This document shows positions 44,695-58,601 of a stretch of 58,602 bases of DNA, in pieces. Position numbers and translations under genes: made by a program. How positions within the stretch are numbered: the stretch's first letter is position 1; each line of letters begins with the position of its first letter. The notes under the pieces were generated by a model. The model made no database searches. It worked only from the letters and a program-made list of their open reading frames with translations, and was not told where the DNA came from. The DNA comes from Acidobacteriota bacterium (GTDB taxonomy: Bacteria; Acidobacteriota; Thermoanaerobaculia; Multivoradales; J023), in assembly GCA_029263355.1 (NCBI GenBank), contig JAJCXQ010000425.1:1-58602 (forward strand), read 5' to 3'.

Positions 44695-46827
44695 ATGAAA
44701 TGGATCCAACTCCTGTTGCTCGTGACCTTCGCCGCCAGTGTAGGCTGCGGAACGCAGTCTTCCAACCTGCCGAAAGACCTCTCCCTGCTCTACGGCCGGG
44801 TTTTTACCGATCATCAATTTGCCGTGGTGCCGGGCCGACGCTGGGACTACTCGGAGGTGAAGCAGGGGTGGACGTTTCGCACTCAGGCGTCGCTGTGGTG
44901 GTACGTTCATCAGACGCCTGAGAGTCCGGTGACGGTGAGGGTGCGGCCGGCGACCGAGAGTGAAGGTTTTTGGTTTCAGCCCTATTGGGACGGAGAGCCT
45001 TTGGCCGAGGTGCCGATGGTGATGGAAGCGGAAGGAATCACCCTCGAGATTCCGCCCGAACGTCTGACGGCCGGGACCCATGAGTTACGGTTGCGTCGGC
45101 GCTCTGGGCCGCTTTATGGACCGGATACGATTGACAATGTCTTCGCTGCCATGAGCGTAAGCAGCGCCGAGCGTGATGTGCCGCTGGTGCGCGAGGAGCT
45201 CGCCACCTACCGTCAGCTGGCCAGTTTCCTGGAGTTTGGCGCTACCGGCCACGATCAGGAGAAGCGCTCCGGTTTCCTGTTCCTCGAGCCACGAACCGTG
45301 GAGATGACCGTCCACCGGGACGAGGCGGCGATGCTGCGGGTGATGGCGGAGAACCTCGGCAACGATCCAGCACGGTTTGCGGTCAGCAACGGCAGCGACC
45401 AGTTCGAGCAGACGCTGGACGGTCCGGGACGCCAGCGATTTCGTATTCCGCTGAGCGAAGGTCGCAACCGATTGACTTTTGAGGTCACAGCGGGAGGACC
45501 GTTCCTGTGGGGTGCGCCGATGGTGACCGGGCCACCGGACCGACGGCCATCGATTATCCTACTGTCGCTCGATACCACCCGCCGGGACGCCCTCGCTCCC
45601 TATGGCGCCCCGTCGCAAGTTACGCCGGCACTCGCGACCTTCGCCGAGCGGGCGACGGTGTTCGAGCAGGCTTTGGCAACATCGTCATGGACGCTGCCCT
45701 CCCATGGTTCCATGTTCACGGGTTTGTATCCGTCGCGGCACCGGGCGGGTGTGTCGGTGGACAAGCTGCCCTCCAATATCGCCACCCTGGCCCAGATTCT
45801 GCGCGGCGAAGGTTATTACACCGCTGGGGTCTCCGGAGGTCCGCTGACCGCCCATCGTTTTGGCCTCGGCCAAGGGTTCCATCAATATCGCGATCCGGAT
45901 CGCTCCGAAACCCGGGGTGATCGCATGACCGACCTCGCCGAAGAGGTGCTCGACGAATGGGACGATCGGCCGGTTTTCCTATTTCTCAACTACTTCGACG
46001 CTCACGGGCCGTACCAGGCACCGGAAGAATCGAAAGCCATCACTGGGGTCGATCGTTTACGCCAGGCGCTCGACGACCCGGACGCCTGGGGGGCGACGAT
46101 CGAGGGCAAGGCTGGGCAGTGGCAAGAGCTCACCGCCGGCCTCAACCCGATTCCCGACGACGTACTGGCCTATCTCCGCTCAGTTTACCTCTCCGAGGTC
46201 GCGTTCATGGACTCCCAGCTCGGTCGGCTGTTCGATCGCTTGCGGCGTGACGGGCTGTTCGACCGGTCGATGGTCGTGATCACCGCGGATCACGGTCAAC
46301 TGCTCGGCGAGTATGGCTTCCACGGCCACGGCAAACGACTCGACCCCGAACTGGTCGACGCGCCGCTGATCGTCAAATGGCCGCGTCAACAAGAGGCCGG
46401 GCGGGTCGCCGATCTGGCCTCGATCGTCGATGTATTTCCTACGATTCTAGCGACCGCTGGCATCACTCCGCCGCCGTCGGACGGTTTCATTCTGGGTCCC
46501 ACGAGCATTCCGGAGCGCGGTGAGCTCGATGTTGTGGTCATCGAGGAGCACGAGAGTCTGGTGCATCCGCTGCGCGGGCCGATGCGGATCGCACCCCATC
46601 TGGTCGGCTTCCAATCCCGCGACTTTCGCCATGTTTGGTGGCGCGACGGTGAACATTGTGCCAACTACCTCGATCGCGCCTGGGTCGACACGACTTGCCC
46701 GCAGGACGACCCGCGTCGGTCGCAGATCGAGCAGAGGCTCGATTCGCCGGTTGCCGAGGTCGCCGCCGGGGCTGAGCCTCTGAGCGCGGCAGACCGCCAA
46801 CGCTTGGAGGCCCTGGGTTATCTTTGA
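44695..46827 (+). CDS. Sulfatase-like lipoprotein (alkaline phosphatase superfamily)
   Basis: Lipobox-like SVGC; LDTTRRD, WTLPSHGSMFTG, DAHGPY, TADHG and a C-terminal LEALGYL. Confidence 0.88.
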   Translation: MKWIQLLLLVTFAASVGCGTQSSNLPKDLSLLYGRVFTDHQFAVVPGRRWDYSEVKQGWTFRTQASLWWYVHQTPESPVTVRVRPATESEGFWFQPYWDGEPLAEVPMVMEAEGITLEIPPERLTAGTHELRLRRRSGPLYGPDTIDNVFAAMSVSSAERDVPLVREELATYRQLASFLEFGATGHDQEKRSGFLFLEPRTVEMTVHRDEAAMLRVMAENLGNDPARFAVSNGSDQFEQTLDGPGRQRFRIPLSEGRNRLTFEVTAGGPFLWGAPMVTGPPDRRPSIILLSLDTTRRDALAPYGAPSQVTPALATFAERATVFEQALATSSWTLPSHGSMFTGLYPSRHRAGVSVDKLPSNIATLAQILRGEGYYTAGVSGGPLTAHRFGLGQGFHQYRDPDRSETRGDRMTDLAEEVLDEWDDRPVFLFLNYFDAHGPYQAPEESKAITGVDRLRQALDDPDAWGATIEGKAGQWQELTAGLNPIPDDVLAYLRSVYLSEVAFMDSQLGRLFDRLRRDGLFDRSMVVITADHGQLLGEYGFHGHGKRLDPELVDAPLIVKWPRQQEAGRVADLASIVDVFPTILATAGITPPPSDGFILGPTSIPERGELDVVVIEEHESLVHPLRGPMRIAPHLVGFQSRDFRHVWWRDGEHCANYLDRAWVDTTCPQDDPRRSQIEQRLDSPVAEVAAGAEPLSAADRQRLEALGYL

Positions 46828-46847: not shown

Positions 46848-49800
46848 CTACGGAACCGACCAGGCTGACGTGTCACCCGACTCGAAGCCATCCACAAAGA
46901 TCAGCGGTGCGGCGCCATCCTCGGAGCGACCATCGAGCTGACGTAGGTAGGCGAGCAGATTGGCCTGTTCAGTAGCCGAGAGCGACAGTACCGTGCGGTG
47001 AGGCTGGGCGGTAGCCAACAACGCGGGGGTCGAGATGACGATGTCGTCGATGCTGACATTGGGGAACTCGTTGCCCGTGAAAACCGCGAGGGTGTTGGTC
47101 GCTCCCGGGGTGAAGGTGACGTCTTCGACCCGCAGTTGGAGCCAGTTGGTGTGGCGCCAACGGGGATCGTTGCCAGGATCACTGAGGGTCATCGTTTGGG
47201 CCACGCCGTTGAGACTGACTTGGATGTCTTGGGCGTTCCAGGAGCTGTAGCGGATCTCGACCGCGCCGGTGCCACCCGCGCCGCCGTCGATGTTGCTGAA
47301 GGTGACTCGGGCGCCGGTGTTGTTGAGCCCTACATAGGCGCGGTTGTGGACGGTGTCGTCGTTGTTGAGGTCAACGTATTCGGTGGTGATGGTGGCGCCA
47401 CCGGAGACGGTGCCGTCCTCGGCTTGCAAGATCTCACCCCCCGCCACCCGGAAGACATCCTCCAGCGTTGGCGCTGAGCCGTCGTGAAAGTACGGCGCGG
47501 TGTTCCAAACTCCGAGCAGGGTCGGGGTGTCGATGCCGGGCAGCGGGCCGCCGAGGCGCCCGCCCGAGCTGGTGCGCAGCGTGCCGACATCGTGCAGGGT
47601 GGCGCCGCCCAGGGTGCTGTCGGTGAAGCTCGCGCCGGCATGGCATCCGGCACAGCCAGCGCTCTGGAATACCGTGCGTCCGGCCCTGGCGTCGGCGGTG
47701 AGGAGGCCATCACTGCCGCGGAACGGGCTACGCGGCAACGACTCGCCCGCCAGCGAGGCGACGTAGGCGGCGAGGGCGTCGAGGTCGGTGCTGAGTCCGG
47801 TTTTGGGTGGCCCCAGGGTGTCGCTGGTGGCGTTGAAGTCAGCATCAGTCATGAAGCCGGCACCACCGAAAGGGCCGCGGATGTCGTTCTCGAAGTCCTG
47901 GATCTCGTCGAAGTTGGCGGTCCAGTGGACATTGCCGTGCCCCATACCGCTGCGTCCGCGTAAAGTGGTGGTATTGCGGAAACCTTCACCTCGGCCGTTG
48001 AAGTCCCAGGTTCGGCCATCGTGGGCACCGTCGAGATGGCATGAGGCGCAGCTCAGATAACCTTCGGCGCTCATCCGAGGATCGCTGGCGTGGTAGAAGA
48101 TGCGTTTGCCGTTGAGGACGGTGGGGGAGAGGCTCTCGTTGGCGACGGTGGAAATCGTGTTGGAGGCGACGCTTTTGTCGCCGAAGCGGAAGAGATCGTC
48201 GGTTTCGAATGCGGTGACGCCGCGACTCATGAAGTTCTTGATGAAAACACGGTTGGTGACCGGGTCGGCGCACACCCCCCGGGGCGCTGCCCCGCTGCCG
48301 AGCCGGGTGACGAGACTGACGAGGCCACTCGCCGGATCAGTGGCGAGCGCATCGAGCACAACAACCTCGTCGTTGCCTTGCAGCGCCACAAATACATAGT
48401 CACCGAGGGGTGAGAAGCCGGCGGCGGCGGCGGAGTCGCTGTTGTCGAGGTCAACCGCTCCGGTGAGGGTGTTGGTCGTGAGGTTGACCTGCGACAGGAC
48501 GTTGCGGACGGTGTTGTCTTGGTCGAGGTCGTCAGCGAAAAACAGCCCGCGCTCCGAGTTCGGTTTGTTGGAGCTGACCCAGGCACTCTGGCCATCGGGG
48601 GAGATGGTGATGCCAACCAGGTAATTGGCGACACCGCGACCACTGGCGGTGCTGTCACGATGGTTCTCGCCACCGAATTTGTTCAAGCGTAAAGTACGGG
48701 CAAGGGTGAAGCTGCTAGGGTCGACCTCCCACACTTCGGCGTGATTCAGGGGTGACATCAACCGGGTCACCAGCACCCGCGAACCGTCGCCGCTGACCGC
48801 GATAGCGCGGGGGGTGGGTCCGAGGGATAGATTGCCGGTCTGCTGCCGACTGGCGGCAGCGAAGCGACGCAGCTCGCCACTGCCTTGTAAAGTGACGTAG
48901 ACGGTCTGGCCGTCTGGAGAGACGGCGAGACCGACGGGAGCGCTGCCGTAGCCGGTGAGAAGATCGGTGATGAAGCCACCGCTGGCGTCGAGCACACGGA
49001 CGCGATCGTCGTCATGGCAGGTGACCCAGATCTCTCCCTGAGCGGTGCGGCCAAGGCTGCGCGGGTCGGCGCAGACGGGCGCCTCGAGAACGACGGCGAG
49101 GGTGTCGGCGTCGATGGCGGTCACCGAGTTATTGTCTGGATTCACTGCCCAGATCCGGCGTCCGGTGGTGTCACAGGTGAGCGGTGCGCTGTGGGTGGGG
49201 AGGGGACCTGCCGGCGGCGTCAGCACCGTCACCGTCAGCGTACGGCTGGACAGTGAGCCCGAGTCGTCCCGGGCCTGGACAGTGGCCTGGTAGTGGCCGG
49301 CGTCGGCATAAATGTGGGGCGCGGTTGCCGTGCTCGACCAGGCGGTGCTCGGTGAGCCGTCGCCGAAGTCGAAGCGGTACTCGATCGGATCGGCATTAGG
49401 ATCGGTGGCGCTGGCCGACAGGGTGACGGATTGCCCCGGCGGTACCGGGTAACTCGAGGCGGTGAAACTCTGGACGCTGGGGGGTGTGTTGCCGCCGACG
49501 CTCGAACCGGTGGAGAAGGTGAAGGAGTAACCTTCGATGCCGTTGCCGACCACGTCTCGGATACCGCCAGCAGGCAGCAGGACCTCGTAGGTGGTGTCGG
49601 CCTGCAGCGGGGCGTCCGGGGTGAAGGTCAAGATGTCGTCGAAGGCATAAATCAGGCGGCCGTTGATCGGTGACCCACCCAGGGGTTGTACGATGAACGT
49701 TGTGCCATTGACGATCGTCGGCGTGTCGAGGGTCTCGTGAATCAACACGCTGATCGGTGCGCCCAGCGGGTAGTTGGATCGGCCGGCACGTGGGATGTGA

Positions 49801-50903
49801 TAACCGACCGACGGTCCGCGGGTGTCGGGCGCCGCCTGGTGGGCCCAGATCGCCATCCCTTGGTTGGGACCGACGCCGCCGGTCACCAACAGGTTGCCGA
49901 GGGGCAAGGCGAACTGGCTGGTGCTGATACCGGTGCCGCCATCGTTGGGGCGCACGGTGTTGGCGCCGTCCAGGTGGAGCACCGACTCGAAAGTCCGCAT
50001 GTCGACCTTGTGATCCCCCATGAAGGCGAATTCGTCTTGGAATTGGATGTACATCGATTCCTCACCGGGGAGGGCACGATCGGTGACGAAAAGCAGGTCG
50101 GTCGGGTCGGTGGCGTCGACGATACGAAAACCGTTGCCGCCGGTGCGGTAAGGAAAAACAATGTAGAGCTTGCCGTCACCGCCCCACAGCTCCGGCCAGT
50201 AGCCACCGGGGCCACCGGTGGTCAGCACGTCGAGCAGCACCGGGTTGGTCGGATCACTGACGTTGTAGGTCGCGACGCCGGTGCGGCTTTGATCCGAGGC
50301 GAAGATCAGCAAGTCGCCGAGCAGAAAGGGATGCCCGATGACACCGGTCAGGCCGAGATGATCCCATTCGGATAACCGGTTGCCCTCGAACTCGATGAAG
50401 GCATTGCCGGATACCTCGTTGTAGCTCCAGTAGGTATCGCCGACGTACCAAGGTTGGAATAGTTGCCCGCGTACCCCGGGACCCATCAGACCTGGGAACT
50501 CGGTGCGCTCGACGGTACCCGCTCCGTTGGCGCGAAACGACCACGGCGCCTCCGGTGGCCAATTGGGTCCAATCACCAGGTAGTCGCCGCTCTTGAAATA
50601 GCCGTGGGCGTTGATCGGCTGGGGTGTGATACCCAAGCTGTCGAGGATTGCGGGATTCGTCGGATCCGAAATATCCCAGGTCCGCACCTGAAAATCGGAA
50701 CCCGGCTGACTCGAGGGCTGTTCGGGCACGGTGAACAGCAAGCCGTTGTGGTACGCGATGATCGCCAGCCGGCCTTGCTGGGGTGCGTTGAGACCACTGA
50801 GGATGGCGCCGGGTGTTTGCGCGACGTTGGGGAATCCCTGGGCAGCGGCGATGCTTGCCAGGGTGAGGCAAAGGATGGCGGCGGTACCGGCGACTTTTTT
50901 CAT
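46848..50903 (-). CDS. Large secreted multidomain protein: propeller/LVIVD-like, Ig-like, PKD, YVTN-like propeller, diheme cytochrome c (peroxidase-like), CBM6/35-like, DGFE tail
   Basis: Signal peptide; FTPDAPLQADTTYEV; FDFGDG; CASCH (48036-48050) and CAGCH (47640-47654); TPTLLGVWNTAPYFHDGSA; QAED..IRYS..IDDI. Confidence 0.88.
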   Translation of the reverse strand: MKKVAGTAAILCLTLASIAAAQGFPNVAQTPGAILSGLNAPQQGRLAIIAYHNGLLFTVPEQPSSQPGSDFQVRTWDISDPTNPAILDSLGITPQPINAHGYFKSGDYLVIGPNWPPEAPWSFRANGAGTVERTEFPGLMGPGVRGQLFQPWYVGDTYWSYNEVSGNAFIEFEGNRLSEWDHLGLTGVIGHPFLLGDLLIFASDQSRTGVATYNVSDPTNPVLLDVLTTGGPGGYWPELWGGDGKLYIVFPYRTGGNGFRIVDATDPTDLLFVTDRALPGEESMYIQFQDEFAFMGDHKVDMRTFESVLHLDGANTVRPNDGGTGISTSQFALPLGNLLVTGGVGPNQGMAIWAHQAAPDTRGPSVGYHIPRAGRSNYPLGAPISVLIHETLDTPTIVNGTTFIVQPLGGSPINGRLIYAFDDILTFTPDAPLQADTTYEVLLPAGGIRDVVGNGIEGYSFTFSTGSSVGGNTPPSVQSFTASSYPVPPGQSVTLSASATDPNADPIEYRFDFGDGSPSTAWSSTATAPHIYADAGHYQATVQARDDSGSLSSRTLTVTVLTPPAGPLPTHSAPLTCDTTGRRIWAVNPDNNSVTAIDADTLAVVLEAPVCADPRSLGRTAQGEIWVTCHDDDRVRVLDASGGFITDLLTGYGSAPVGLAVSPDGQTVYVTLQGSGELRRFAAASRQQTGNLSLGPTPRAIAVSGDGSRVLVTRLMSPLNHAEVWEVDPSSFTLARTLRLNKFGGENHRDSTASGRGVANYLVGITISPDGQSAWVSSNKPNSERGLFFADDLDQDNTVRNVLSQVNLTTNTLTGAVDLDNSDSAAAAGFSPLGDYVFVALQGNDEVVVLDALATDPASGLVSLVTRLGSGAAPRGVCADPVTNRVFIKNFMSRGVTAFETDDLFRFGDKSVASNTISTVANESLSPTVLNGKRIFYHASDPRMSAEGYLSCASCHLDGAHDGRTWDFNGRGEGFRNTTTLRGRSGMGHGNVHWTANFDEIQDFENDIRGPFGGAGFMTDADFNATSDTLGPPKTGLSTDLDALAAYVASLAGESLPRSPFRGSDGLLTADARAGRTVFQSAGCAGCHAGASFTDSTLGGATLHDVGTLRTSSGGRLGGPLPGIDTPTLLGVWNTAPYFHDGSAPTLEDVFRVAGGEILQAEDGTVSGGATITTEYVDLNNDDTVHNRAYVGLNNTGARVTFSNIDGGAGGTGAVEIRYSSWNAQDIQVSLNGVAQTMTLSDPGNDPRWRHTNWLQLRVEDVTFTPGATNTLAVFTGNEFPNVSIDDIVISTPALLATAQPHRTVLSLSATEQANLLAYLRQLDGRSEDGAAPLIFVDGFESGDTSAWSVP

Positions 50904-51670: not shown

Positions 51671-51855
51671 TGAGATCTCCTTTGGGTGGCCGCATTGTAA
51701 CGCAGTGACGTTGATGTCTCCCAGGGTAGCGATCTCAGAGTCGTGGGCTGGACGATACCCTGTGGGGAATCGAAAGCAGGGTTGCAGGTGCCAAGAGTCG
51801 CCGCGCGCCAAGAAGCCTATACTTGGCGGCATCGCAAACCCTCGGAGGATCTCCC

Positions 51856-52980
51856 TTGAAGCTCGAAACTCTTCTGATCCACAGTGGCGCCGACGTCGAC
51901 CCATCCACCGGCGCGGTGGCGCCGCCGATCCATCTTTCGACTATTTTTGAGCACGCGCCCGATAACAGCGAGCCGCTGCACGATCACCTCTACATCCGCG
52001 AGTCCAATCCCACCCAGAGCCGGTTGGAAGAAGCCTTGACTGCCGCCGAGGGCGGGGCGGCGGCACTGTTCTTCGCCTCCGGGTTGGGAGCGAGCGCGGC
52101 GGTTCTACAATCGTTGCCGTCCGGCTCCCACGTCGTGTTGCCCCGGGACGTTTACCATGGCGTGCGCAAGATTGGGCACGAATTTGTGCCGCGTTGGGGT
52201 GGATCGGTGACGGCGGTAGATATGACGGACCTCGATGCAGTGCGTGCCGCGCTGACCCCGGACACCCGGCTGATTTGGGCGGAGACACCGTCGAATCCTT
52301 TGCTTAGGATCGTCGACCTGGTGGCGCTGGCCGAGATCGCCCATGATCACGGCGCCAGGTTGGTGGTCGACAATACTTTCGCCACACCGATCCTGCAGCG
52401 CCCGCTCGAGCTCGGCGCCGACATCGTGATGCATTCAACGACCAAATATATGGGTGGTCACAGCGATGTGCTGGGGGGAGCGCTGGTGCTGAAGGAGCGG
52501 GCGTCGTCGTACGACGAGCTGTTTGAGGTCCGCTCGGTACTCGGGGCGGCGGGTTCACCGTTCAATGCCTGGCTGGTGCTGCGCGGCTTACGCTCAATGG
52601 CTTGCCGGGTGGAGCGTCATGCGTCAAACGCCCTGGCGGTCGCCAAAGCCTTGGCAGATCATCCGGCCCTGGAGGCGGTGTATTACCCCGGGCTGCCCGA
52701 ACATCCCGGCCACGACATCGCCCGCCGCCAGATGAGCGCCTACGGTGGCATGTTGTCGCTGTCGGTGCGCGGTGGACGCGAGCAGGCGGTTGCGGTCGCG
52801 TCGCGGGTGCGGATCTTCACCAATGCTACCAGCCTGGGTGGCGTCGAAAGTCTGATCGAGCACCGGGCATCGAGCGAAGGCCCAACTTCGACAACGCCGC
52901 AGAATCTTCTGCGAGTGTCGATTGGGCTCGAGCATGTCGATGATCTGAAAGCTGATTTGTTGCAGGCATTGGAGGGTTGA
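51856..52980 (+). CDS. Trans-sulfuration PLP enzyme (cystathionine gamma-synthase/lyase family)
   Basis: Motifs [42 protein letters not shown] and LRVSIGLE; GGAGG SD before TTG. Confidence 0.93.
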
Positions 52981-53003
52981 TGGGGTGGGGGATTTCTGCC
53001 GTA

Positions 53004-53693
53004 TCAGCCGCGATGGCGCTGTTTTTGCTCGGCGAGCTTCAGCAGGAGGCGAGTCGAGTCCGCTGACAGGCCGTAGTCGTTGATCTCGGCGTGCAGGTCG
53101 TCGAGTTGACCGTGGCCGGCCACGAAGCCGTTGATGCGTGCGGCTGCGGTGGATTTCACCAGATCTTCGATCCGCGGGTAAATCGCCTCGAGCTCAAAGC
53201 GCAGGTTGCCGGCGCGGCTCAACATGTACTTCTGGTGGTAATCTTCGGCCAAGTAGAACGGGCCGGCGGGGGCGATCTCGGTGTGGACCTCACCTAGTTT
53301 CTCGCGGGCAGCGTCGCGGGTCGCCAAAGCCTTGTCGTGCTGGGTGCCGCCATGGGTGAAAATCGCGGACATGTATTGCCGCTTCCAGACTTGGCGGGTT
53401 GGACTGTGGCTGGTCCAGAAGATCTCCAGCAATTCGTCGTACGAGATCTGGGTCGGATCAAAATCGATCTCGAGGGTTTCGGCGTGATCACCGATCTGGT
53501 GATACGTCGGATCCAACGTAGTTCCGCCGGCATAACCGACGCGGGTGCGGACAACGCCGCGCAGACTCCCGAACCGGGAGTCAGGCCCCCAGAATCACCC
53601 GAGGGCGAAGGTTGCAGTTTCGATGTCGGTGGGAGCCGCGAGATCGATCGCGGGTCGGGCTAGCGAGAGTGGCTGTTGCAGAGCGAGGCTCAT
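53004..53693 (-). CDS. msrA: Peptide methionine sulfoxide reductase A, selenocysteine-containing (229 aa, UGA at codon 33)
   Basis: AGGAG SD and ATG 53693; ATFALG-TGA(53595-53597)-FWG equals the GCFWG motif; in frame with RVGYAGG, PTY, DHAE and FYLAEDYHQKY. Confidence 0.92.
53564..53582 (-). promoter_or_regulatory. Bacterial SECIS-like hairpin
   Basis: mRNA GACUCCC-GGUUC-GGGAGUC starts 12 nt after the UGA, with a G-leading apical loop. Confidence 0.8.
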
Positions 53694-53785
53694 GGTGACT
53701 CCTAAAACTCGAAGAGTGAGAGGTGGCGGAGGCCACCCTCAATAACGCCGATCGTGTTGCGGGTATTCCATCTCGAGAGACTCGA

Positions 53786-55120
53786 CTAACGGGAACTGGC
53801 GGCCGGCATCCGGAGGTCATAACAGTAGAGATGATCCTGCTCCCGCAACAGAAGTTGGCCGCCAGAAATGACCGGCTGCGACCAGCTTTGCATCTCGACG
53901 TCGGGGATCATGAAGGAGCCGCGCTCGACGTAGGCTTTGGGGTTCGCTTCGATCAGGATCATTCGTCCGTCGCGGTAGCGGAAGTACAACCGGCCGTCGG
54001 CATAGGCGATGGCTGCGGAGTCTTGGCCGGCATTACGCTCCGGTCCCCAGGTGACCTTACCGGTCATGAAGTCGACGGCGAGCGGGAATCCCTTGTTGTG
54101 ACCGGTGCCGGTGTAGACGGTACCCTCATGCAAGATCAAGCCACCATGGTGGTTTTGCATGACGTTGGCTTCCAGAAAGTAGACCTCGTCAGCGTGGAAG
54201 GTCTCACCGTCCCGTCGGATCTTGACGAGCGCGGAGCCGGTGCCATAACCGGCGGAGGCCAGAACGTAATCGCCCTGAACAACCGGCGTCGCGATGTTGG
54301 CAATATCGCTCGCGACCCGGTTGTAGCCCCACAATAATTTGCCGGTCGCGGCCTCGACGCCGATCAAGCCGCGTCCGACGAGTTGCACGTATTGACGGGT
54401 GCCTGCCGCTTCGGAGACGATCGCCGACGAATAACCCGCGCCGTCGGCGCCGATCGGGCCGAGGCGTCGGCCTTGGGTTCGCCAGATCTCTTCACCGGTG
54501 TCGGCGTTCAGCGCCACCATGAGCGCCTCGATGTGCCCTGGGGTAACCACCACCCGGTCGCCGTCGACCAACGGAGATTCGCTCGATCGCCATTCGTAAC
54601 TGCCCATGGCCTTCATCATGTAGCCGTTGAAGTCCTGGATTAGGCTGCGGCGCCAACGCTCTTTGCCGGTCGCCGCGTCGAGGCAGATGACGTCGCCGTC
54701 GGTGGTCACGAAATAAAGCCGATCGCCGGCCAGGGTTGGAGTCGAGCGCGGTCCGGGGCGACTGTCCTGGTGCACCGAGCCGACCCGGGTACGCCACAGC
54801 AGCTCACCAGTCCGCGTCAAGGCGATGGCATATTGGCCCGCAGCTAGATCCCCGTCGGCCTCGAGATCTCCCAAGGTGTAGATCCGGTTGTCCGCGACCG
54901 CGAGGCTGGAGTACCCGGCGCCCAGGCCGTCCACCTTCCACAACAGAGGTGGCCCACCCTCGGGCCAGGCCTGCAACAAGCCAGTGTCGCCAGATTTTCC
55001 GTCGCGCTCCTGACCGCGCCACTGCGACCAGTCGTCGCCGGCCGATAGGGTTGGCCAGAAGCTGGCGATGAGCAACATCATGACGCACGATCGAACCATG
55101 GGGAGCTGAATGAGAGGCAT
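53786..55120 (-). CDS. Secreted PQQ-binding-like beta-propeller protein (BamB-like family)
   Basis: Motifs DWSQWRG..RDG, WPEGGPPLLW, GYSS, GPRSTP and repeated ATGK..W. Confidence 0.88.
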   Translation of the reverse strand: MPLIQLPMVRSCVMMLLIASFWPTLSAGDDWSQWRGQERDGKSGDTGLLQAWPEGGPPLLWKVDGLGAGYSSLAVADNRIYTLGDLEADGDLAAGQYAIALTRTGELLWRTRVGSVHQDSRPGPRSTPTLAGDRLYFVTTDGDVICLDAATGKERWRRSLIQDFNGYMMKAMGSYEWRSSESPLVDGDRVVVTPGHIEALMVALNADTGEEIWRTQGRRLGPIGADGAGYSSAIVSEAAGTRQYVQLVGRGLIGVEAATGKLLWGYNRVASDIANIATPVVQGDYVLASAGYGTGSALVKIRRDGETFHADEVYFLEANVMQNHHGGLILHEGTVYTGTGHNKGFPLAVDFMTGKVTWGPERNAGQDSAAIAYADGRLYFRYRDGRMILIEANPKAYVERGSFMIPDVEMQSWSQPVISGGQLLLREQDHLYCYDLRMPAASSR

Positions 55121-55131
55121 GAATGAGTCTC

Positions 55132-56616
55132 CTATACGACGCCAGCTTGTTGGAGCGCATGCAGCGAGCGCTCGAGTACCTTGCTTTGGGCATCACGTGG
55201 GGTGGGCAGGTAGGTGATCGCCGGCGCCAAGATGCGGGAGGCCCAACTCGGGTGCACCAGAGCGGCCTCTTCTTGAATGGCGGCGGCGTATTTGTATTGA
55301 TGGCTTTGAAAGGCCCGCTCCGTCAAGTGCCGGCGCATCTGTTCGAGGAAAGCTGGTGCCGCTTCGGGCTGTCGATCGATGAGGATCCGTGCGCTAGCGG
55401 GGGAGGGTTGCTCGAAGATGTTGCCGATGCTTGCTGCGGTGCACTTTTCGTTGCCCAGAGCGTCGAGCCCCGCTCCCTCGAGGTCTCCGAAGAAGCGGAT
55501 CAGATCGCGGCGCATAAAGGGCAGCCACGCGGCGGCTTGTAGGATCATCAGCCGCCGCGTGGCGTCGTTGCGAGAGGTGCGCCAGGCGTAGGCGAAAGCG
55601 TTGACTTCGGTGACGCCGTGGACCGGGCCGTGGCGACGGGCCGCGGCGGTCGGTCGGCGGTGGAAGAGCTCGCTGGCGTAGAGGCGAAGACCGTCCCACA
55701 CCGTTGCGGGGCCGATTCCGGCCTTGAAGGCGCCGACCACCAGCTTCTGAGCCGACGCCGAGTCGCTAGCTCGCAACTCAGCAAGCAGAGCTGCACTCGC
55801 TGCCGGATCCTCTCTCCCGTTCAGCCAGCCATCTGGCAAGCCGGAAGCGAGCTGGCGACTACGCTCGAAGGCTTCGAGCTCGGAGTCGGTGATTGAGTCG
55901 GAGAGGTAAAGCAGGCCGTTGATCAAAGATCGTAAGGCGGGCTCGGCATGCCGCCAGTCGAGGCGCCGGATCACACGCTCGACCTGAGTACAAAAGATGA
56001 TCTTGTGCCCAAGGTCGACGTAGCAGCGGGCGGCATAAGGCCATAGCAGTTCAAAGAAGGAGTCGCGATCGTGGAAGGGGAGCAGCCCAACGAGGGCGCG
56101 GTCGGCCTGCTCGGCGTCCCAGGCGTCCATCGCGGCAAGGAAAGCACGGCGTGCTTTGGGCTCACTGTCGAAGCGGACGTCGGGACGCTTGGACAACACC
56201 CACTCACCTTCATCGTGATCACGCTGTTGCGAGTTCTTGAAGTCGTCGATGCTCCACAGGGCAGCCAGACAGGCTTGCTGGTCGGAGGCGGTGGCCGCGA
56301 GTTGGAAGGCGGATTCCACCATCATCACACAATGCAGCTTGCCGCCGACGCTGCGAGGCCGAACGTCGTGAACACCAGCCATGAAAGCGGCCCCGAGCAA
56401 GGTCTGATAGTCGGCGCCAGCTCGAATGGCGCGGGCGGCGACTTGCAGAGCCACGTTACGTGGAACGCGGCGCAACTCTTCGGCGAGATCTGTCAGCCGG
56501 TTCAGGGCCAGGCGACCGCGCTGCGGAGCGGCCGCCTTGCCGTTCGGGGCCCACAACAAGCCGGCTGTTCCAAGCCCCAGATGGATCATCGCATCGCGTC
56601 GATTCAGCGTCCTCAT
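55132..56616 (-). CDS. Tat-exported helical protein of unknown function
   Basis: GGAGG SD; MRTLNRRDAM..AAA twin-arginine signal; recurring His motifs. Confidence 0.8.
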   Translation of the reverse strand: MRTLNRRDAMIHLGLGTAGLLWAPNGKAAAPQRGRLALNRLTDLAEELRRVPRNVALQVAARAIRAGADYQTLLGAAFMAGVHDVRPRSVGGKLHCVMMVESAFQLAATASDQQACLAALWSIDDFKNSQQRDHDEGEWVLSKRPDVRFDSEPKARRAFLAAMDAWDAEQADRALVGLLPFHDRDSFFELLWPYAARCYVDLGHKIIFCTQVERVIRRLDWRHAEPALRSLINGLLYLSDSITDSELEAFERSRQLASGLPDGWLNGREDPAASAALLAELRASDSASAQKLVVGAFKAGIGPATVWDGLRLYASELFHRRPTAAARRHGPVHGVTEVNAFAYAWRTSRNDATRRLMILQAAAWLPFMRRDLIRFFGDLEGAGLDALGNEKCTAASIGNIFEQPSPASARILIDRQPEAAPAFLEQMRRHLTERAFQSHQYKYAAAIQEEAALVHPSWASRILAPAITYLPTPRDAQSKVLERSLHALQQAGVV

Positions 56617-56738
56617 CGGCGACCTCCCGGGTTCGTCGAGCGTGGTCTCGGCGTCCTCTATCGCTGTCGTGTCTCGCTTTACAGGGTACGGTTTGGCCAC
56701 TCCCAAGTTGAGGATGCTGAGACGCTTTTACCGGCCTT

Positions 56739-58601
56739 TTACAGAGTTCGGTGTTCTCGCGCAGACACACCGGGGAGGGTGAAGCAGAAGGTTGACCCTT
56801 GGCCTTGCCCTTCGGATTCGACCCACACTCGGCCACCATGGACCCGGACGATGCGCTGAACGAGGGCCAAACCGACGCCGGTGCCATCAACATCCGCGCT
56901 CAGGCGCTCGAATAAGCCAAAAATCTTTTCATGGTAGGAGGGGTCGATACCGAGGCCGTTGTCTCGCACCAGGTAAACCTGTCCGCTGTTGTCTTGACGG
57001 GTCGTGATGTCGACTCGCGGATTGGGCTGATCACCCATGTATTTGACCGCATTCTCGATCAGATTTTGCAGCATGGTCAGAAGTCGCTGTCGATCGCCAG
57101 TGACGGTCGGTAGCTCGGGGTCGATAGCCACCTCCACGCCGCGTTCCTCGATCTGCCCGGCAACTTGCTCCGTCGCTTCCTGAGCCAGCTCAGTGAGCGG
57201 GATCTTCTGCGGCTCGTTGGCGACCCGGCCGACCATCGACAACTCCAACAGCTCGTTGACCAGGGTGCTCATCTTGACGGCTGCTGCCTGGATGCGTTCC
57301 ATGTCGTGTTGGATGCGGTCGAGCTTGCCCTCGGAGAAGTCCTTCTCCAACAGGCCAAGGAAGCCGCGGATCGTGATCAGCGGGCTCTTGAGGTCGTGGG
57401 ACACGCCATAAATGACACGCTCGAGATCGGCATTCTTGGCCTCCAACTGGCGGACAAACTGCTGACGCTCGGCGTCGGTGCGCTGCATCAAAGCATTGGC
57501 TTCCGCCAGTTGTTGCAGCCTCATATCGAGCCGCGTTCGCCGCAGCAGCCAGCCGACGATACCGATTGCTGTGATCGCCAAGCCCAGGGTGTAAACGATG
57601 TAGGCCCACCAGGTTCGGTACCAGGGGGGTAGGATGCGGAATTCGTAGGCCGCGATCCGGCTGGGTTGATGGTAGATGTCACGCCCCTGAACTTCGAAGC
57701 GGTATCGACCTTCCCGCAGGGCGGTGAAGTCACGATAGGTTTCGGTTGTCCAGTCGGTCCAAGACTCTTCCAGACCGATCAACTGGCTACGGTAGCGATT
57801 GGCTGTGATGCCTTCGAAGCGCGGCAGCGAATACTCGACGCGGAGCGAGCTCTGGTCGTAGTTCAATGGCTGGGGTGCGATCAAAAGAGCGGCTTCCGAG
57901 TCCGCGTCGGCACTGGATGGTGCAGCCGATTCACCGCCGAAAAGCACGGTGCGTCCGGGATTGGCGATCGTCACTCGCCGGATCATCGCCGAGAAGGTCG
58001 AGGCAATGGATGGGGCGCGATCGGTTGGCGTGATGCTCGGCCGGAAAGATGGATGGCCCGTCGCGACGCGGAAGAGGCCATCGACGCCACCCAGCCAGGT
58101 GACCTTGGAAGCTTCAGGCAAGATGGTGTGGGTCGACGCGGTCTTGATCCGACGCAGACTGTTACGGTCGAGCTGAAACCTGCCATCAGGCTGGAGGAGG
58201 GCGATCACGTTGTCTCCACCGTGTAAGCTCAACCACAGGTTGGAATCCATGTCGGGTTTGGCCCTCAGAATCGCAAGGTCGCCATCATAGTCGGGGGCGG
58301 GCAGCAGCGGGCTGAGGGTGAAGGCGTTGACAGTCGGATCGAATTGAAAGAATCCGTCGGGGCTGGGAAAGATCAGCTGGTCACCCAACAACTGGGCTTT
58401 GATGCTCCGCAGGTTCGGCCAGCCGTGCTCATGGCCGAAGCGTTGAACCGTGAGCACGTCGAGTGCGGGCCCGGGAGCGAGGGTGATTCGCATGACGCCG
58501 TCGAAGTGGGTCCCGAGCCATAAATGGCCTGCCGGATCCTCGGTGATGCTGCGAATTTCAGATTCGATCTTGGGAAGCTTTCCGAGCTCGGTCCAGCGGT
58601 C
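56739..58601 (-). CDS. Sensor histidine kinase with beta-propeller and Y_Y_Y domains; 5' truncated by window
   Basis: Frame open to the window end; YRSQLIG..W, EGRYRFEV, PPWYRTWWAY, SHDLKSPL, NLIENAVKY, DNGLGID and GTGVGLA. Confidence 0.93.
   Translation of the reverse strand, partial: DRWTELGKLPKIESEIRSITEDPAGHLWLGTHFDGVMRITLAPGPALDVLTVQRFGHEHGWPNLRSIKAQLLGDQLIFPSPDGFFQFDPTVNAFTLSPLLPAPDYDGDLAILRAKPDMDSNLWLSLHGGDNVIALLQPDGRFQLDRNSLRRIKTASTHTILPEASKVTWLGGVDGLFRVATGHPSFRPSITPTDRAPSIASTFSAMIRRVTIANPGRTVLFGGESAAPSSADADSEAALLIAPQPLNYDQSSLRVEYSLPRFEGITANRYRSQLIGLEESWTDWTTETYRDFTALREGRYRFEVQGRDIYHQPSRIAAYEFRILPPWYRTWWAYIVYTLGLAITAIGIVGWLLRRTRLDMRLQQLAEANALMQRTDAERQQFVRQLEAKNADLERVIYGVSHDLKSPLITIRGFLGLLEKDFSEGKLDRIQHDMERIQAAAVKMSTLVNELLELSMVGRVANEPQKIPLTELAQEATEQVAGQIEERGVEVAIDPELPTVTGDRQRLLTMLQNLIENAVKYMGDQPNPRVDITTRQDNSGQVYLVRDNGLGIDPSYHEKIFGLFERLSADVDGTGVGLALVQRIVRVHGGRVWVESEGQGQGSTFCFTLPGVSAREHRTL

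Follow-up and report, generated by a model that had tools for sequence, protein, structure and literature searches.

We found that a gene for methionine sulfoxide reductase A (MsrA) on the minus strand of the window (i.e., the whole 58,602-nucleotide stretch of DNA analysed here) carries an in-frame UGA at the codon for its catalytic residue. We are highly confident that this gene, msrA (53004..53693), encodes a genuine Sec-MsrA, that is, a selenoprotein methionine-S-sulfoxide reductase A with two domains and of the 1-Cys type. Standard gene calling reduces msrA to a catalytically dead 170-aa fragment, while reading the UGA as selenocysteine (Sec) restores an oxidative-damage repair enzyme that is predicted to be functional. 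Furthermore, Sec-msrA identifies this organism, along with its relatives, as a user of selenium.

UGA occupies the catalytic position of a two-domain MsrA

The table-11 ORF listing contains a single call at this locus, 53004..53516 (-), which has a TTG start and lacks the active site. An ATG at 53693 is preceded by a Shine-Dalgarno-like AGGAG, read from the sequence 5 nt 5' of it (53699..53703 (-)). The frame from this ATG, translated with TGA as U, spans 229 codons followed by a terminal TGA (53006-53004), and it contains one internal TGA (53595..53597), which is codon 33 (U33). The sequence around U33 reads ...IETATFALG-U-FWGPDSRFGSLRGVVRTRVGYAGG..., with RVGYAGG further on, and the alignments of the closest relatives begin at residue 1 of this translation. 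U33 falls on Cys16 of CoMsrA, the selenoprotein MsrA of Clostridium oremlandii, and the 229 residues include no Cys. The first-pass annotation had argued that the ORF track misses the active site, that the frame opens at an SD-preceded ATG, that the UGA lies exactly at the catalytic Cys of GCFWG, and that a product without Cys has no resolving Cys; our data agree with it on each of these points.

The assignment to MsrA, also made in that annotation, is well supported by profile matches. The catalytic PMSR domain covers residues 26-159 (53217..53618 (-); Pfam PF01625, 133.8 bits vs a cut-off of 23.7, 7.6e-39), and the NCBIfam profile for msrA, TIGR00401, scores 117.3 bits vs a cut-off of 108.1. 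Residues 176-211 (53061..53168 (-)) match PF20939, 'Selenoprotein methionine sulfoxide reductase A, helical domain', with 25.0 bits, barely above the cut-off of 23.7 (1.6e-5). This marginal assignment of a C-terminal helical domain is backed by comparison with solved structures, among which Cys versions of CoMsrA are the top matches: the alignment to PDB 4lwj (E 2.6e-56) places query residues 24-223 on chain residues 7-207 and runs continuously through both domains. The active-site residues of CoMsrA, taken from the account in PMC4333827, are the GCFWG motif, Y47, E55, Q89, Y90, H137 and Y140. All are conserved in the window MsrA, as G32-U33-F34-W35-G36, Y64, E72, Q106, Y107, H153 and Y156. 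In every feature by which a CoMsrA-type 1-Cys selenoprotein MsrA could be recognised computationally, the predicted protein belongs to this type.

The TGA codon is conserved among relatives

We compared the catalytic codon across relatives in genome_contigs, a collection with one genome per prokaryote species, using the best 80 of 432 confirmed relatives. Among these 80, the codon is TGA in 7 (L021, L034, L035, L037, L054, L062 and L077) and TGC or TGT in 73, so that alignment with Cys-containing homologues, one of the checks that had been suggested for this gene, places Cys in the UGA column. The nearest match (L021), labelled 'Acidobacteriota bacterium', shares 77% identity and the TGA codon. 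The labels of the Sec relatives include Myxococcota/Deltaproteobacteria, Desulfovibrionaceae, Syntrophomonadaceae, Clostridiaceae and Chloroflexota. On a quickly built tree with weak support, 6 changes between Sec and Cys are required, but well-supported branches force only 1, so that the tree is compatible with one or several origins of Sec. Five rows were omitted from this tree: L059, whose motif is cut by the locus end, L102, which is identical to L021, and L109, L198 and L199.

A second sample consisted of 40 related genomes from the same genus, family or order. All 14 matches that reach the helical domain contain one TGA each, at 39-80% identity, and in all 14 the TGA was checked to be the catalytic codon. 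These matches come from 12 of the 40 genomes (G001, G003 with two copies, G004, G005, G011, G012, G014, G016, G017, G018, G022 and G034). The stop-free matches, which are conventional MsrAs, are confined to about residues 20-162. Every one of the 40 genomes has at least one conventional copy except G001 and G022, which show only copies starting at query residues 14 and 23. One genome of the same genus, G002 (97% complete), contains conventional MsrA only. Judged from these sequences, the Sec form appears to be the rule for two-domain MsrA in the window's lineage.

These data bear on the possibility that the gene is a pseudogene whose TGA stems from faulty sequencing or assembly, or from a recent nonsense mutation. 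Standard ORF calling does stop at the TGA, leaving a longest table-11 ORF without the active site, and the genome, a metagenome bin, is fragmented. However, TGA recurs at the identical codon in all 14 two-domain homologues of 12 relatives, and 7 genomes at a greater distance have it as well. Apart from the TGA the frame is intact and keeps every active-site residue, and a co-varying hairpin follows the TGA in TGA genes only. An independent contig of 3627 nt from the probable source run matches 52900-53800 with 0 differences; since it derives from the same underlying data, this excludes an assembler artefact alone. The stretch was present in one sequencing run only (the probable source), no RNA run was listed with it, and two marine runs contained only short conserved parts of relatives. 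We consider an error or recent nonsense mutation, which the first-pass annotation had named as grounds for abandoning its reading, extremely improbable and not tenable.

A Sec-specific hairpin follows the UGA

Finer rules of bacterial SECIS elements deal with their spacing and with what the G and U of the loop do when SelB binds. The hallmark of these elements, as outlined in PMC1088965, is a small apical loop that contains G and lies in the coding region directly after the UGA. In msrA, a hairpin of this kind (53564..53582 (-)) begins 12 nt after the UGA. Its 5' arm (53582-53575), GUU loop (53574-53572) and 3' arm (53571-53564) form GACUCCCG-GUU-CGGGAGUC, a perfect 8-bp stem; counting 7 bp and a GGUUC loop is an equally valid reading. 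This is the perfect 7-8-bp hairpin with a G-leading loop described by the first-pass annotation. The fold energy of a 61-nt stretch containing the hairpin is unexceptional for GC-rich sequence (z = -0.64, and 44 of 200 shuffles fold equally well), and we therefore judged the hairpin by comparison with relatives.

The eight stem pairs of the window were scored in the same register in 81 genes (8 Sec, 73 Cys). Counting contiguous pairs outward from the loop gave 8, 8, 6, 0, 6, 5, 6 and 8 for the Sec genes, with a mean of 5.9, compared to a mean of 0.86 in the 73 Cys genes, among which 46 have 0, 3 have at least 4 and 2 have at least 5. At least five contiguous pairs are thus found in 7/8 Sec genes vs 2/73 Cys genes, and the contiguous-pair counts differ with a Mann-Whitney p of 1.4e-5. 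L035, the Sec gene with 0 pairs in the window's register, can fold a hairpin too, but with its register shifted. All 8 Sec genes have the GUU loop, vs 33/73 Cys genes.

We also aligned 18 Sec sequences (17 distinct). Standard pairs fill 91.2% of cells in this alignment, vs 22-57% once the 3' arm has been shifted along by 1-3 columns, and 3/8 pairs are altered on both sides (C-G to U-A; U-A to G-C or G-U; G-C to A-U). None of 500 shuffles of this alignment reached the observed covariation score or percentage paired, while by the number of pairs changed on both sides (246/500 shuffles match) and by further pair types (498/500) the structure is no better than shuffles; because the sequences are related, these counts are not probabilities. 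The contrast between Sec and Cys genes is the stronger argument for a SECIS element. Three Sec genes outside the alignment (L109, L198 and L199) have the same hairpin.

The region also encodes a highly conserved peptide, PDSRFGS, and the hairpin could in principle be a by-product of this peptide in a GC-rich genome, rather than a SECIS element, with poor or no read-through of the UGA. The unremarkable fold z-score is what such a by-product would give, and five Cys homologues (L022, L024, L030, L032 and L033) retain 6-7 of the 8 pairs. However, Cys genes with the same or a similar peptide are mostly unpaired, as the pair counts above indicate, and they share the GUU loop far less regularly than Sec genes do. 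In addition, the paired positions change together with the amino acids: where PDSRFGS is replaced by PDARFGQ, the two serine codons (UCC/AGU) become codons for alanine and glutamine (GCC/CAG) and the compensatory changes coincide with these replacements. The RNA structure thus constrains the peptide. We consider an origin of the hairpin as a coding by-product exceedingly unlikely. Our comparison instead supports the prediction that the msrA hairpin behaves as a SECIS element.

A search for bacterial SECIS elements had been proposed as a check. The covarying hairpin proved specific to Sec genes; an Rfam scan of 53450-53720 with E up to 10 returned only 5 chance-level matches and no SECIS family. 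A genome-wide regular expression for TGA followed by the apex CC(G/A)GT(T)(C/T)GG with open flanks gave 94 matches, among which, by eye, msrA and selD alone are credible; the pattern is therefore too loose for listing further selenoproteins. The Cys homologues that retain most of the hairpin, all with TGC, carry labels of Dehalococcoidia, Desulfobacterales and Syntrophobacterales. Three of them (L022, L024 and L030) keep 7/8 stem pairs with the loop-closing pair broken, and the other two (L032 and L033) have 6 contiguous stem pairs. These hairpins look like remnants of a recent switch from Sec to Cys, or a pre-adaptation for the reverse. Overall, this comparison shows cleanly, in natural sequences and within one conserved peptide, how a SECIS hairpin accompanies UGA but decays where the codon is UGC or UGU, and the contrast would be useful for training selenoprotein finders.

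The genome encodes the Sec machinery

The window is one contig (C425) of a 10.25-Mb metagenome bin of 948 contigs, 86.7% complete and 4.2% contaminated. If the UGA is decoded as Sec, the host must carry selA, selB, selC and selD, as the first-pass annotation had pointed out while treating their absence as decisive against it. We found all four components in the bin. The tRNA-Sec lies at C463:7321-7416 (RF01852, 68 bits vs a cut-off of 47; ARAGORN tRNA-SeC with anticodon tca), selA on C412 (457 bits, with the gene cut by the contig end), selB at C49:2368-4254 (318 bits, or 348 including a C-terminal piece) and selD on C905 (355 bits, with one in-frame TGA). All of these contigs differ from that of the window. 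In GC content and tetranucleotide composition, C425 and the sel contigs fall inside the bin's spread, with C412 farthest, at the 90th percentile of tetranucleotide distance. These matches amount to a complete Sec system. Across the lineage, selA is present in 38/41 genomes, counting that of the window (G000), and is absent from G007, G010 and G019; these three genomes contain no TGA-MsrA.

The in-frame TGA of selD (C905:2891, locus L018) lies in ...KTCG-U-AAKLSP..., and selD is itself a selenoprotein gene. The position of U presumably corresponds to Cys17 of the E. coli enzyme. A hairpin, GAGCCC-GGUC-GGGCUC, follows this TGA. Its apex (CCC-GGUC-GGG) resembles that of msrA (CCC-GGUUC-GGG) and lies at a similar distance from the UGA, as would be expected if one SelB serves both genes.

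We also considered whether the UGA might be read by means other than Sec insertion, such as a general reassignment (Trp or Gly codes), near-cognate read-through or misinsertion of Cys. Other UGA reassignments exist in bacteria, and Sec insertion was deduced here from sequence. However, long ORFs of this genome end in TGA more often than in any other stop (358/664 across the first 200 contigs). This rules out a general reassignment, and msrA itself is terminated by TGA. Homologues have Cys in the catalytic column, not Trp or Gly, and the genome contains the Sec system described above. Taken together, these data render non-Sec decoding highly improbable and favour Sec as the residue specified by codon 33.

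Proposed decoding and recycling of Sec-MsrA

Based on these features, translation would start at ATG 53693, and SelB carrying Sec-tRNA(Sec) would bind the hairpin via its GU-containing apical loop when the ribosome is at codon 33. Sec would then be inserted at this UGA in place of termination, while the second TGA (53006-53004), which lacks such a hairpin, would terminate translation. By analogy with characterised MsrAs, the selenolate of U33 would attack methionine-S-sulfoxide and release methionine, leaving a selenenic acid. The C-terminal helical domain may keep the active site in shape, as it does in CoMsrA.

Since the protein is without Cys, no intramolecular resolving step is available and an outside thiol system must regenerate the enzyme. 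The likeliest reductant would be a glutaredoxin or a low-molecular-weight thiol, as for CoMsrA, and we infer by this analogy that recycling of the window MsrA may depend on glutaredoxin. For the Cys version of CoMsrA, substrate-induced dimerisation through the catalytic residue is described in PMC4479559, and such dimerisation may provide an alternative route of resolution. The genome contains four frames with a glutaredoxin domain, the matched parts of which contain no TGA. One of the glutaredoxin-domain frames (C49:6089-6271, locus L115) lies in a 216-aa ORF about 1.8 kb from selB on the same strand. Neither in the window nor in 17 Sec loci did we find a glutaredoxin or thioredoxin gene adjoining Sec-msrA. 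The flanking scan at the 17 Sec loci covered 43 of 81 ORFs, after fragments of msrA and the majority of frames that were short or overlapped others had been set aside, and within this scope it revealed no conserved partner gene.

The first-pass annotation had presented Sec-MsrA without a resolving Cys as described from a clostridial species and uncommon in bacteria. CoMsrA is indeed such a protein, but the Sec form appears to be the rule in the window's lineage, and the lack of a resolving Cys is common across the subfamily, Cys forms included. No further Cys is present in 7/18 Sec genes and 28/73 Cys-type genes, counted with generously extended N-termini that make these Cys contents upper bounds.

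The genome also contains one msrB and two conventional msrA copies (on C894 and C218, where the match is confined to query residues 17-162). A broader proposal, which we regard as doubtful, is that two-domain MsrA has been fixed as a selenoenzyme in this family of large-genome bacteria, has a separate job (e.g., salvage of free methionine sulfoxide) and is recycled unlike the clostridial Sec-glutaredoxin system (e.g., through an intermolecular diselenide or a low-molecular-weight thiol). The idea of a separate job comes from the coexistence of the Sec MsrA with conventional Cys MsrAs and MsrB in the lineage, while salvage is hinted at only by a neighbouring Cys/Met PLP enzyme in the genus.

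Genomic neighbourhood of msrA

The Cys/Met-metabolism PLP enzyme (PF01053, 2.2e-119) is encoded at 51823-52980 (+), convergent to msrA. Its pairing with msrA recurs in the closest relative (L021:3724-4908; L021 is identical to L102), but not in the other 15 Sec loci. A search with this enzyme returned matches from scattered phyla at no more than 61% identity and gave no synteny information. In the closest relative, a histidine kinase (L021:9-2522) lies directly upstream of msrA, while in the window two genes (53786-56706 (-)) separate the kinase (56739-58493) from msrA. The first of these (53786-55120 (-)) encodes a secreted-looking PQQ/BamB-like beta-propeller and the second (55132-56706 (-)) a 524-aa frame that matches no Pfam family. 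Farther away, a 1351-aa frame (46848-50903 (-)) contains a lactonase-like propeller and motifs resembling cytochrome c/di-haem peroxidase alongside Big_5 and PKD domains, and it is adjoined by a 710-aa sulfatase-domain protein (44695-46827). A scan of 52800-54000 for promoters and terminators returned no sites.

Comparison with known systems

Sec-MsrA is already a verified bacterial selenoprotein family (PMC13188914, PMC4333827), and its occurrence here is unsurprising to a specialist; the gene opens no new question. The account in PMC13188914 places MsrA, with the motif GUFWG/H, among the experimentally verified prokaryotic selenoproteins 'in certain bacteria'. A 2006 survey credits Acidobacteria with three selenoprotein families and predicts a Sec-MsrA in Syntrophobacter fumaroxidans (PMC1794560, Table 3), which is likewise a bacterial MsrA listed as a selenoprotein, from a different, deltaproteobacterial lineage. 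In the open-access literature searched, we found no description of Sec-MsrA from the window's lineage.

The msrA hairpin shares with fdhF-type bacterial SECIS elements (the consensus of Zhang and Gladyshev) its location in the coding region right after the UGA and a small loop that contains G; no Rfam family matches it. Conventional Cys MsrAs from E. coli, M. tuberculosis and bovine (1ff3, 1nwa and 1fvg) share the PMSR fold and a GCFWG-type site with the window MsrA (E ~1e-24 to 1e-28). Unlike the window MsrA, they have a catalytic and a resolving Cys, use thioredoxin and lack the helical domain. The two-domain subfamily, recognised by the motif ATFALGCFWGPD, also occurs as a widespread Cys form in archaea, including haloarchaea (L069-L100) and Hadarchaeota (L044, L048 and L058), with L025 also listed. 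At three haloarchaeal loci (L086, L088 and L090), the two-domain MsrA adjoins a second, conventional msrA.

CoMsrA (Clostridium sp. OhILAs; PDB 4lwj, 4u66, 4lwk-m and 7c13, all Cys versions) is the closest counterpart among solved structures. The report on it in PMC4333827 describes a protein of 209 residues with one Sec and no Cys, i.e., of the 1-Cys type, with an activity 20-fold above that of its Cys version. According to the same report, CoMsrA requires its helical domain for the shape of the active site and is recycled by glutaredoxin, including a selenoprotein glutaredoxin, and not by thioredoxin. The two proteins differ in that the window MsrA has about 17 more N-terminal residues (229 vs 209 aa in total), and in their hosts: that of CoMsrA is a clostridium, while that of the window MsrA is known from a 10-Mb metagenome-assembled genome whose nearest record is labelled Acidobacteriota. 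The partners of CoMsrA include a selenoprotein glutaredoxin, whereas the four glutaredoxin frames of the window's genome have no in-frame TGA in their matched parts and none adjoins msrA. Both proteins nevertheless combine an N-terminal PMSR domain with a distinct C-terminal helical domain, and both carry GUFWG and no other Cys.
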